A stretch of DNA of 64,000 nt from Octopus vulgaris (Eukaryota), in contig OX597830.1 of the NCBI GenBank assembly GCA_951406725.2, positions 34,658,001 through 34,722,000 on the forward strand, read 5' to 3'. A model generated the notes under the pieces. It ran no database searches. It was not told the origin of the DNA and was given only the letters and a program-made list of their open reading frames with translations. How positions within the stretch are numbered: position 1 is the first letter of the stretch; each line of letters starts with the position of its first letter. Positions 26,497 to 49,552 of this stretch are shown here, in pieces. Both the position numbers and the translations under genes were made by a program.

Positions 26497-27075
26497 TACT
26501 CTTTTACTTGTTTCAGTCATTTAACCGTGGCCATGCTGGAGCACAGCTTTTAGTCGAGCAAATCGACCCCAGGACTTATTCGTTGTAAACCTAGTACTTA
26601 TTCTATCGGTCACTTTTGCCGAACAGCTAGTTACGGTGACGTTTAACACACCAGCATTGGTTGCCATGTGATGTTGGGGGAACAAACACAGGCACACAGA
26701 CATATACACACACGTACATTTATACATATATACGACGGGCTTCTTTCAGTTTCTGTCTACCAAATCCACTCACAAAGCTTTGGTCGGCCCGAAGCTATAA
26801 TAGAAAACACTTGCCTCAAAGTGCCACACAGTGGGACTGAACCCGGAACCATGTGGTTGGTAAGCAAGCTAGTTACCACACAGTCACTCCTATGCTGTCT
26901 GTCTAACTGTCTGTATTGTACATCTTGTTTCAGTCATTAGACTGCGGCCATGCTGGAGCACCTTGAAAGAAATCTACACACAAATCAACCCCAGTAATCA
27001 TGATTTAAAACCCGGTAATTGTTCTATCGATTCTTTTGCCGAACCGTTAAGCTACGAGGACGTAAGCAAACCAGT
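26497..27075 (-). mobile_element. SINE family A full copy (26497-26891) plus partial copy
   Basis: Family motifs in reverse. Confidence 0.8.
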
Positions 27076-27221
27076 AATCATGTTTCCTCTAAGTATTCCA
27101 AATTAGTAGATTTAATTGTATGGTGTATGCTATATTAATCCAACACTTCAGCAGTCCAATATTGTATACATTACATTATTTACATTTGATGGATATTCTT
27201 TCCTTCACTTTGTTTGTTGTT

Positions 27222-27267
27222 AACACAGCGTTTCGGCTGATTTACCCTCCGGCCTTCATCAGGTATC
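27222..27267 (-). ncRNA. Minimal type I hammerhead motif, left arm, cleavage site mutated (GCU)
   Basis: GATAC-CTGATGA-A-GGCCG..CAGCC-GAAA-CG-CT-GTGTT. Confidence 0.6.
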
Positions 27268-27342
27268 TTGGGGAAATTTCGAACCTGGGTTCTCCTTCCT
27301 AAGGTTTTTTTGTCAATGTTATTATTATTATTATTATTATCA

Positions 27343-27898
27343 TTGAGTGAGAGAGCAGTGCATGCCATCAAAGTGACACTGGGGTAAAATATACGAAGCC
27401 CAATATACCCATCATGACTACCCGTCTGATAAAGGTACACCAGGCACATGCATCACAGTCATATGTGCGCGACATGGTCATCTCATATCAAGATAAACAG
27501 CACATGACCTTGCAGGTGGGGCCCAGTTAGAATTTTCTTCAGGTTGAGTAGCCCATCCCGCTCAAACGGTCCCTGAATAAGGGTTGTTTAAGGATGTTGA
27601 AAGAACCACCCATGTTTCCAGAGGTGAACTATTGAAACCCCAAAGAATCCCTCTCAACACATGGCTATGATGCTCCCCCACTACTTCTGCTCGTGATCAG
27701 AGATGCACATATCGTCAGCCACTAAGGGACATGCTCAATTGGTTAAGGTCAAACAACTGACAAGCAAATCTGTGGTATTGAGCAGAATATTTGCTGTAGC
27801 CCATCTTTTATACCAAGACAAAACAATGTACATGATAACATTTCCAATCAGTTAAGATCAGAAGCCATGAGAGCCACTGCCTGGTACTGCATCAGGGC

Positions 27899-27902
<4 letters not shown>
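27343..27902. mobile_element. About 560-bp non-coding interspersed element inserted in (ATT)n
   Basis: Reverse copy at 49038-49552 also bounded by (AAT)n; splits the (ATT)n of the palindromic element. Confidence 0.8.
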
Positions 27903-27970
<68 letters not shown>

Positions 27971-28180
27971 GGTCACTGTCTGGAATCGAACTCGAGATCT
28001 TGGAGTTAGTAGCCCAAGCTCTTAACCACGACGCCATATGCCCGTGGGCATAATAGCCTAGTGGCTACTAACCCCAAGATCCCGAGTTCGATTACAGGCA
28101 GTGACGTAAATAATAATAATGATAACAACAACATAGATAATTACCTTAGGAAGGAGAACCCAGGTACGAAATTTCCCCAA

Positions 28181-28226
28181 GACACCTGATGAAGACTGGA
28201 GAGTACATCAGCCGAAACGTTGTGTT
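28181..28226 (+). ncRNA. Minimal type I hammerhead motif, right arm
   Basis: GACAC-CTGATGA-A-GACTG..CAGCC-GAAA-CG-TT-GTGTT; palindromic AACGTT stem III. Confidence 0.7.
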
Positions 28227-29019
28227 AACAACAAACAAGATGAGGACAAATAACCTTCAAATGCAAATAATGTAAATAAGGTACATAATTCCCCATCTCT
28301 TAAATATAGAACTGTAATGTATACATTACTCTAATGTTTTAAATATCTGAGAGTTTTTTTGCTTGTTTGTCTTTTAGCCTTTGTTCAACCGTGGTTGAGT
28401 AAGATTACAATGTTAAATATCCTAGTCTTCAGTTTTTGGGTATCGAAGATTCTATCAGTGAATGCGTCCCTTCTTCTTTATGATTAAAGGTTTCTATAGG
28501 AAGATAGATTTAGCTGCTATTTCTAGTAAGCTACTCGACTGCATAGAGTTACGTACATCAGCAAAATGTACTTTATTATTGTTGTTGTAGTTATCTAGTT
28601 CTGGGTCAAACTGGATTGAGCAAATCTATGATAAAAGCATCCCATCTATTTGTATTTCTATATTTTGTAGTTTCTAGAGAATTTCTCAGACTAAATTAAC
28701 GTGGTGATGGTTTAATCTGAGAGTGATTTGGCGGATTTTTTTAACAGGTCGAGCTAGAGTAGAAGAACCTTAATTGTATTAAGAGTTGCTTTGTTTAGCA
28801 CTGGTCGGGCCTTAATTCAGCAACATTTTAATCAAGAGAATTCTCAGGAGCACATAACTAAATGTGTTCTGTCTGAAGGTATGATTAAGTTTGATGGAGA
28901 TTTGGCTGCGCTTTCTAGCTGGAAAGGACACTGCATAGAGAACCGTAGTTGCTATTTTTGTTTAACTACTTGACTCAGTGTCTCTATGTGCATTCCAAAT
29001 ATGACTACCCCGTCTTTGT

Positions 29020-30595
29020 AGTACATTGGACAAAATGCTTTGTGGAATTTTCTCTCTCGTTACATTCTGAGTTCAAATTCCGCCGAGGTCTACTTTACCC
29101 TTCATTTTTGCGGGGGTCGATAAAATAAGTTCCAGCTGCACACTAGGGTCAATGTAATCGACCTAGCCCCTCTCCCGACATTGTACCAAAATTTGAAACT
29201 TATGTCTAAGGCGTCGAGCTGGCAGAATCGTTAGCACGCCGGGCAAAATGCTTAGAGGCATTTCGTCCGTCTTTACGCTCGGTGTTCAAATTCCACCGGT
29301 GTCAACTTTACCCTTGATCCTTTAGAGAATGATAAAATTAGTACAAGTTCAGCGCTGGGTCGATGAATCAAATTCACTCCAAACTCCGAAATTGCTGGCG
29401 TTATGTTAAAATTTTAAACTCATATTCTTTTCTGCAAAAGGCCCGAAATTTTTGGGGAGGGGGACCAGTCGATTAGATCAACCCAAGTAGGCAACTGGTA
29501 CTTAATTTATCGACCCCGAAAGGAAAAACGGCAAATTCGACCTCGGCGGAATTTGAACTCAAAACATAACGGCAGACGAAATAAAAACGAGGTGTACAGT
29601 GAGGAAATAAAGATACACACCGTAGTACTAGGTATCCACTACAAGGCAAGAACGTATTTAATATTTTTTATTTTGTAAGGCGGCGAGCTGGCAGAAACGT
29701 TAGCACGCTGGACGAAATGCTTAGCAGCATTTCGTCTATCTTTACGTTCTGAGTTCAAATTCGCCAAGGTCGATATTACCTTTCATCCTTTCGGGATCGA
29801 TGAATTAAGTATCAGTCGAGCACTGGGGTCGATCTAATCGACTGACCCCCTCCCCAAAATTTTCGGGCCCCGTGCCTAGAGTAGAAAACAATATTTTTAT
29901 ATTGTGAGGCAGCGAGCTGGCAGAAAAGTTAGCGTACCGGGTGAAATGGTTAGCGGTATTTTATCTGTTTTTAAGTTCTGAGTTCAAATTCCGTCGAGGT
30001 CGAATTTGCCTTTCATCCTTTCGGGGTCGATAAATTAAGTATCAGTTACACACTGTGGTCGATATGATTGACTTAATCCCTTTGTCTGTCCTTGTTTGTC
30101 CCCTCTATATTTAGCCCCACTGTGGACAATAAAAAATAAATATTTTTATTTTCTAAGGCGGCGAACTGGCAGAAACGTTATCACGGTCGGTGAAATGCTT
30201 AGTGGCATTTCGTCTGTCTTTACGTTTTGAGTTCAAATTCTGCTGAGGTCGACTTTGCCTTACATCATTTCGAGGTCGATAAATTAAGTACCAGTTGCGT
30301 ATTGTGGTCGATCTAATCGACTGGCCCCTTCCCCAAAATTTTGGGCCTTGTGCCTCGAGTAGAAAAGATAAAAGAAATTGAAACCGATATTATTTACGGT
30401 AAGGCGGTGAGCTTAGCAGTATTTCTTCTGACTTAACGTTCTGAATTCTAATGCTACCGGGGTCAGCTTGGACAATTATTCCTTCAAGATCATTAAAGGA
30501 CCAGCTGACCACAGAGGTTGATGTAATCGACAAGCCCCTTCCCTCAAAATTGTAGGTTTTTGTGTCTATGGAAGAAAGGATATTATTTACGCTAA
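29020..30595. mobile_element. Cluster of about seven Nin/Deu-like SINE copies, mostly head-to-tail (+), one (-) at about 29430-29580
   Basis: Heads aaggcggcgagctggcagaa at about 29208, 29677, 29907, 30155, 30401. Confidence 0.85.
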
Positions 30596-31637: not shown

Positions 31638-31811
31638 TACAGTTCTATATTTAAGAAATGAGAAATTATGTACATTATTTACATTTGACGGATATTTGTC
31701 CTCATCTTGTTTGTTGTTAACACAGCGTTCCCACTGATATACCCTCCAGCCTTCATCAGGTGTTATGGGGAAATTTCGAACCTGGGTTCTCATTCCTAAG
31801 GTACTTTTCGG

Positions 31812-31851
<40 letters not shown>

Positions 31852-32067
31852 ATATCTGCCTGGAATCGAACTCGGAATCTTGGAGTTAGCAAGCCAACGC
31901 TCTTAACGACTACGCCATATGCCCGTGGGCAGTTATGGAGTGAATTTTAGGAAGGATAGGAAAATATTAGATTTATAAGCCCTAAAATTCACTCCATGAG
32001 CACATTGCGTAGTAGTTAAGAACGTTGGCTACTAACCCCAGATTCCGAGTTCGATTCTAGACAGTGA

Positions 32068-32104
<37 letters not shown>

Positions 32105-48824: not shown

Positions 48825-49037
48825 TTATATATATATATATTACACATACATACATATATACATACATCCATACGGAGTGGGCGAGATGTCACGCACAGAA
48901 TAAGTCCAATACGCTCCGGAATTATCAAAGACTTGCACCATTTTTACTAAAATTGTATAAAATAAACGAAATAATGATGAATACAAACGTACATGATGAA
49001 CAACATGAATACTACTACTACTAATAATAATAATAAT

Positions 49038-49552
49038 AAATGTCTTGATGCAGTACCAGGCAGTGGCTCTCGTGGCTTCTGATCTTAACTGATTGGAAGT
49101 GTTAACAATGTACGTATTTTGTCGTGGCATAAAAGATGGGCTACATCTTCTCAATTCAACTGCTTTTCTTGTCAATTGTTTGACATGTCACTTAGTGGCT
49201 GACGATAAGTGCAGCTCTGATTACGAGCAGTAGTATTTTTTGGAGCATCGTAGCCATGTGTTGAGAGGAATTCTTTGGGGTTTGAATAATTTATCTGTGG
49301 AAACATATGTGTTTTGTTCATCATCCTTAAAACAAACTTCATTCAGGGACCTTTTGAGTTGGGTGGGCTACTCGACGTGAAGAAAATTCTAACTGGGCCC
49401 CATCTATACGGTCATGTGCTGTTTAATGTCACGCACATATGGTTCTGATACATGTGCTTGGTGTACTCTCAGCAAACAGGTTGTCATAGTGGATGTATTG
49501 GCCTTCGTATATTTCACACCAGTGTCACTGTATTAGCATGCACTGCTCTCTT
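49038..49552. mobile_element. Diverged reverse copy of the (AAT)n-embedded element
   Basis: tgatgcagtaccaggcagtggctctc...gcatgcactgctctc; AAT repeats at both ends. Confidence 0.8.

Follow-up and report, generated by a model that had tools for sequence, protein, structure and literature searches.

Inverted pseudo-LTRs of a Penelope-like element, each opening with a tRNA-like head, in the genome of Octopus vulgaris

We analyzed a 64,000-nt stretch of the Octopus vulgaris genome (contig OX597830.1, positions 34,658,001 to 34,722,000; hereafter the window), in which a preliminary description had placed a palindromic element at 27151..28316 with two divergent tRNA-like heads, each leading into a hammerhead ribozyme. 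The features of this element and of a related pair nearby are listed below in window positions.

27167..27342, minus strand: left arm, hammerhead part of a pseudo-LTR; the 3' end has no tail, and the match to the right arm stops at 27171
27221..27267, minus strand: left minimal type I hammerhead, with a mismatch in stem II and C at U16.1 as signs of decay
27343..27902, no strand assigned: nested ~560-bp repeat of another family, within the (AAT)n tract
27903..27969, minus strand: (AAT)n tract of the left arm
27970..28044, minus strand: left tRNA-like head, with the A box at 28026-28036, the B box at 27983-27993 and an anticodon-like loop at 28006-28012
28038..28051, no strand assigned: inversion junction on a small hairpin that is part of the unit (-7..+5 relative to the head); probable RNA 5' end
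28047..28108, plus strand: right tRNA-like head, with a damaged A box and the B box at 28084-28093
28109..28142, plus strand: (AAT/AAC)n tract of the right arm
28152..28316, plus strand: homologue of the first codons of a Penelope-like element (PLE) ORF; within it lie the hammerhead, the tail and a second motif resembling a B box
28181..28227, plus strand: right minimal type I hammerhead, whose stem III is the palindrome ACGU and whose cleavage is predicted at 28221/28222
28281..28316, plus strand: PLE tail, in the right arm only; in longer copies it runs on into the element body
31638..32104, no strand assigned: second inverted pair of the same family, with the tail on the minus arm

Self-comparison of the window showed inverted arms that were 91% (27205-27305 and 28143-28243) and 84% (27936-28014 and 28063-28141) alike. 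The fold-back that appears after removal of the insert at 27343-27902 is therefore real, and the insert is a separate repeat, as first described. The right end of the element was retained; however, the left end lies near 27167-27171 and not at 27151. The arms are inverted, but the 36-nt tail of the right arm is missing from the left, indicating an asymmetric fold-back instead of a symmetric palindrome. Both B boxes, both CTACTAA loops (28006-28012 and 28065-28071) and the left head as a whole were recovered, whereas the alignment shows that the right head has lost its A box. The centre atgccc-gt-gggcat was found where expected, but it is a small hairpin belonging to the unit itself that also occurs downstream of the ORF; likewise, the second B-box-like motif is present but falls within the opening codons of the PLE reading frame. 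Minimal type I hammerhead motifs were mapped in both arms (CTGATGA at 27256-27262 and 28186-28192; GAAACG at 27229-27234 and 28214-28219), though both are decayed, with a stem II mismatch in each and C at U16.1 in the left. The PLE start codon is mutated in both arms. In the second pair, an ORF-end remnant (about 31948-32005) lies upstream of the plus head.

Two more SINE-like repeats lie upstream of the element, at 26500-27060, one of them with a minus-strand tRNA-like end near 26820-26890, and 29019-30551 is occupied by a cluster of SINE-like repeats ~220 nt long, at least six in number and facing both ways (families D7-D9, D14 and I2-I5). The nested ~560-bp repeat, which contains no long ORF, has a second copy in the window at 49035-49551 and further copies at loci L111, L222 and L265. 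It occupies (AAT)n tracts, often within arms of the PLE family, with 13 matches in 10 of 98 other loci; some of its copies are 96-98% alike, and it is thus younger than its host. It is possibly the non-autonomous partner of a TAA-targeting element, presumably of the R4/Dong type. At four loci (L118, L203, L251 and L261), CCHC and endonuclease coding fragments downstream of the head, which we take to be R4/Dong-like, lie in the (AAT)n tract and split the head from the hammerhead.

The arms had been described as a separate non-autonomous retroelement, possibly mobilized by a Penelope reverse transcriptase (RT). The mobilizer gained support, but the separate element did not, because the same head and hammerhead form the 3' repeat of an autonomous, RT-encoding element and short copies are as diverged as ORF-linked ones. 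The head directly followed the ORF stop codon in 27 of 30 ORF-anchored loci (one being the query's own locus), and the best 30 ORF loci all matched one family. Two of the 29 other top-scoring copies extended upstream into coding sequence unbroken. The ORF carries an RT (Pfam RVT_1, E 1.4e-10), and its C-terminal part was 52-69% identical to seven RT-bearing proteins (P0001-P0007); one cluster among the closest proteins was named from a barnacle, and horizontal transfer between marine invertebrates is possible. A natural open stretch of 524 aa shared 56% identity with a relative of 861 aa. The C-terminal domain of the ORF received no GIY-YIG hit in Pfam; a motif in this part, VY-IPCSCG-LY-GET...EH...H, is conserved in eight sequences and is tentatively read as GIY-YIG. 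The linker between RT and endonuclease showed no conserved Cys cluster in the alignment (A1), and the extra Zn finger of Neptune/Nematis is thus unmatched.

The element is ~2.9 kb long and is ordered as ORF (RT, GIY-YIG-like), stop codon, head, (AAT)n, hammerhead, tail and element body, with two alternative 3' ends and a pseudo-LTR in direct or inverted orientation. In longer copies the last 36 nt of the right arm run on into the element body, and 111 exact tail-body junctions were counted; in one natural copy (L387), the reading frame stays open from an ATG that precedes the hammerhead and enters the PLE N-terminus. Every family copy seen was decayed, and no intact full-length copy was found among those examined. 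Viral contigs contained no relative of the PLE, and prokaryote genomes contained one PLE-like contig, in a MAG. Each arm is thus the pseudo-LTR, with the tail added on the right, of an autonomous Penelope/Poseidon-type element.

We next consider the abundance of the family. In the genome (2.8 Gb, 227 contigs), exact matches numbered 5,025 for a hammerhead 25-mer and 3,681 for a head 21-mer, and the reversed controls gave 0 for both. The 25-mer was exact in 14 of 80 sampled arms, giving an estimate of ~29,000 arms. The 98 head-anchored loci represent the 100 head matches listed first on contig C1, two close pairs having been merged; the samples were drawn from the initial 81 Mb of a single contig and include some rows that resemble local duplicates. 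Short copies outnumbered ORF-linked ones by about 4 to 1, as judged from the 21-mer counts and from the copy starts at the head (81/98), and short copies with intact boxes could in principle seed more. These observations would suit a separate non-autonomous SINE-like family of head and hammerhead, with its own short masters, amplified by Pol III and moved by the PLE. Nevertheless, we consider such a family improbable. Divergence was the same in short copies (4.2%, n=62) and ORF-linked copies (4.6%, n=15; P 0.77), so that one burst from the same masters suffices and a separate SINE family is unneeded; the equal divergence also rules out a younger short subfamily. The 5' junction was not fixed, and internal initiation by RT on the master RNA accounts for the short copies. 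An independent SINE family with fixed ends was rejected on the ORF linkage, the variable junctions and the equal divergence. Moreover, an internally deleted subfamily amounts to two copies in the genome (L393 and L394, on contig C3), in which the same deletion joins body position ~224 to the head. At one locus (L012, 1200-1750), short units follow one another head to tail and the junction between them recurs, as a SINE family might leave; this same-strand layout could form a hammerhead dimer or circle.

We then examined the head itself. The A box lies at +8 and the B box at +51 of the head, and its similarity to the tRNAs of the genome reached a z of up to 10.5 over shuffles, with Arg-TCT, Ala and Thr as the best matches; the comparison set comprised 27 distinct tRNAs of only six isotypes, and the parent is not singled out. 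ARAGORN and Rfam made no tRNA call in the window or on well-kept copies, and no cloverleaf was formed by the head in free folding. Since ARAGORN misses well-kept heads of this family, its blank on 54 distant loci is no control. A B-box pattern was absent downstream of the 37 distant PLE ORFs that were scanned (26-40% identical). Within the family, 14 of the 98 heads had no hammerhead within 1 kb. The joining of a tRNA-like A/B-box head to a PLE-type minimal hammerhead, the core of the preliminary description, was confirmed.

Copies tended to begin at the head. Among the 98 loci, 81 started within -30..+23 of it, 3 between -30 and -100, and 14 were longer. In a sample anchored on the hammerhead, 17 of 30 copies reached the head and 16 of those 17 stopped there (manual tally). 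A word just upstream of the head had 935 exact matches in the genome, compared with 3,681 for the head 21-mer. Of 30 tail-body loci, 5 reached the 5' head (two pairs being the same place) and none extended into the ORF end; L402 starts at the head. Template-jump junctions that join the head to unrelated upstream element sequence also landed at about -6. This pile-up of 5' ends likely corresponds to the 5' end of the element's RNA.

We put about even odds on the head being used as a Pol III promoter. A stronger version, in which an autonomous PLE with a captured tRNA-derived promoter is transcribed over its whole length by Pol III and its SINE-like and palindromic copies are strong-stop products, appears rather unlikely; a Pol III transcript would be uncapped, and translation of the PLE would then have no explanation. 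No TTTT common to the copies was present on the sense strand over about 2.9 kb. However, this absence had P values of 0.02 and 0.14 under two nulls, GGGG was also absent, and 13 of the 37 distant PLEs had no TTTT in 0.8 kb; thus, TTTT depletion was rejected as proof of Pol III transcription. In two raw RNA runs, reads of both orientations were about equal, and depth fell from 3' to 5' as in DNA, tracking genomic copy number; fold-back loose ends at -7 occurred in 293 and 248 reads, and no pile of read ends was seen at the head. Such reads speak neither for nor against a Pol III start.

The same PLE anatomy could also hold with the head as a passenger, a tRNA-derived SINE caught in the 3' UTR, while the RNA starts by Pol II or the RT stops at the hairpin. 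We rate this reading somewhat below an even chance. The head with (AAT)n could pass for a very small SINE, a hairpin fold-back was seen at 17 of 53 readable 5' ends, and the TTTT test is weak. In contrast, the 5' ends coincide with the 5' boundary of the tRNA-like part, whose boxes are spaced as in a tRNA, whereas a structural block would be expected on its 3' side. In addition, no free head-only family was found, and the four translated cases among the 14 of 98 heads without a hammerhead enter coding sequence that we assume to be R4/Dong-like. The known promoter is nevertheless in favour of a passenger: the pseudo-LTR of Penelope from D. virilis contains an internal promoter of the Inr/DPE type (according to the accessible part of PMC2377424), and a start of RNA within the repeat therefore needs no Pol III. 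Taken together, we regard the feature as an inverted pair of PLE pseudo-LTRs whose tRNA-like head likely marks the RNA start and is likely a captured Pol III-type internal promoter, with a probability of roughly 0.8.

The hammerhead was assessed separately. The core (CUGANGA, GAAA and UH) with stems I and II is present in the family arms, and the same core occurred within 700 nt after the ORF match in 7 of the 37 distant PLE loci scanned (81 were fetched). Checking with the Infernal models of Rfam, as had been proposed, gave no hammerhead call in the window or on well-kept copies, and free folding did not yield the structure. We specified the hammerhead structure ourselves, using a search pattern that did not demand stems, and aligned four family arms with six distant PLEs (one of the seven was dropped, its motif being identical to another). 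Seven of nine stem pairs had changed on both sides; pairing was 89.7% compared with 72.3% after shuffling, and the score was reached in 0 of 500 shuffles. The core is kept while the stems change. Among family copies, the sole common non-CpG core variant was at the free N7 position. Variation was 3.6% in the core and 4.3% in the flanks; that the core is no better kept is as expected for dead copies and is not support for a ribozyme. No read ends were piled at the cut site (28221/28222) in the two raw RNA runs, though standard RNA-seq would hardly reveal them. The two hammerheads of the palindrome lie on opposite strands and cannot dimerize within one transcript. Cleavage would be expected only in a dimer or with the aid of protein, the source being tandem copies on the same strand and not the opposite arms.

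Palindromic copies were not rare accidents. An inverted piece lay within 750 nt in 69 of the 98 head-anchored loci and was adjacent in 62. The hairpin formed the axis of a perfect palindrome at 351 places and had the ORF end upstream at 468 (exact matches in both cases). The junctions of inverted pairs varied from copy to copy, and this, together with the opposite strands of the two ribozymes, speaks against the designed bidirectional layout that had been suggested. In 45 pairs with both hammerhead arms, the tail was found on both arms in 0, on one arm in 39 and on neither in 6. Non-majority variants common to both arms numbered 33, compared with 8.9 expected and a maximum of 19 in 2,000 shuffles (38 alignable pairs); the window's two arms both show the loss of the start codon. 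The two arms of a pair derive from one source, and gene conversion could have added to the variants they have in common. A tail-bearing arm cannot be a simple snap-back of a tail-less arm, which suggests two cDNAs of one source joined at their 3' ends.

These counts also bear on the idea of a Tc1/mariner-like fold-back or MITE with a TA target duplication, raised from the TA-CAGT...ACTG-TA ends (31638 and 28316). The arms are inverted and most copies have G-T-A after the tail, but these letters are the start of the element body, and the TA that follows ACTG is element sequence too, seen on one arm only. Because the end was on both arms in 0 of 45 pairs and the arms are linked to an RT ORF, we consider this origin extremely improbable.

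Under the preferred reading of inverted PLE pseudo-LTRs, the following course may be proposed. The RNA would start ~7 nt before the head (by analogy with the biochemistry of PAc in the available part of PMC11167929). The PLE protein would nick AT-rich DNA and start reverse transcription at one of two internal positions, one on each side of the tail. The RT would copy about 260-290 nt, until it reaches the 5' end of the RNA. Two such cDNAs, one primed from each target strand, would then join their 3' ends through microhomology, most commonly in the self-complementary hairpin where the head starts, and the palindrome would thus arise as a by-product of insertion. For PAc, the accessible text of PMC11167929 describes two RT start sites that define the tail, nicking of both strands and an ORF that starts in the hammerhead; the two-primer inversion step was left unvalidated in that text. 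The one-tail rule and the variants common to the arms provide genome-scale support for this two-primer model of PLE inversion.

A captured head would explain how a PLE left tens of thousands of SINE-looking copies, which automated pipelines would likely class as tRNA SINEs. It offers an origin for repeats that combine Pol III promoters with hammerheads, as well as a sharp natural marker of the RNA 5' end of a PLE. If end-to-end transcription by Pol III were true, a SINE head and its mobilizing RT would form one unit, with a direct route from a PLE to repeats of the Sm-alpha type. The available main text of PMC13282606 lists Penelope and unclassified SINE families in the O. vulgaris repeat annotation and contains neither "ribozyme" nor "palindrom"; the word "Penelope" is absent from PMC5786205. 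In the open-access literature searched, we found no tRNA-like head in a PLE pseudo-LTR, and this part looks new, although the family itself may be catalogued.

The palindrome and the ribozyme are known traits of PLEs. In the accessible portions of PMC11167929 and 10.1101/2021.04.23.441226, Penelope/Poseidon elements (Penelope, PAc) have an RT followed by a C-terminal endonuclease, a pseudo-LTR with a hammerhead, an ORF start in or near it, two 3' ends defining a 30-40 nt tail and an inverted 5'-truncated partner; the latter preprint gives this partner with a one-sided tail as the PLE layout. Likewise, the octopus element carries its 36-nt tail at a single end, and this tail matches the sequence with which the body starts. 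The difference is that its pseudo-LTR opens with a tRNA-like A/B-box head and (AAT)n. The minimal PLE hammerheads of PMC4209133, as far as its main text was available, are similar in the extra base between 9 and 10.1, G10.1-C11.1, the 4-5 bp stem I and the palindromic 15.2-16.2, and they also occur in pairs 100-700 bp apart on opposite strands; however, the word tRNA is absent from that text, whereas the octopus arms are tRNA-headed. Metazoan non-LTR retrozymes have a type I hammerhead and a proposed PLE mobilization (PMC7761336, in part), but they are tandem monomers that give circles, while in the octopus family tandems are rare, inverted pairs predominate and no circle was seen. Small-RNA-gene-derived sequence in a retroelement terminal repeat is described in the accessible part of PMC10886601 for Cassandra, Helenus and Ajax, which are non-autonomous LTR elements, unlike the autonomous PLE of the octopus. 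Finally, in Sm-alpha and Sj-alpha of schistosomes a type I hammerhead likewise lies downstream of a promoter of the Pol III type (PMC6765202 and PMC8490949, in part); these are tandem non-autonomous repeats, whereas in the octopus the same pairing is part of an RT-encoding element and is mostly inverted.
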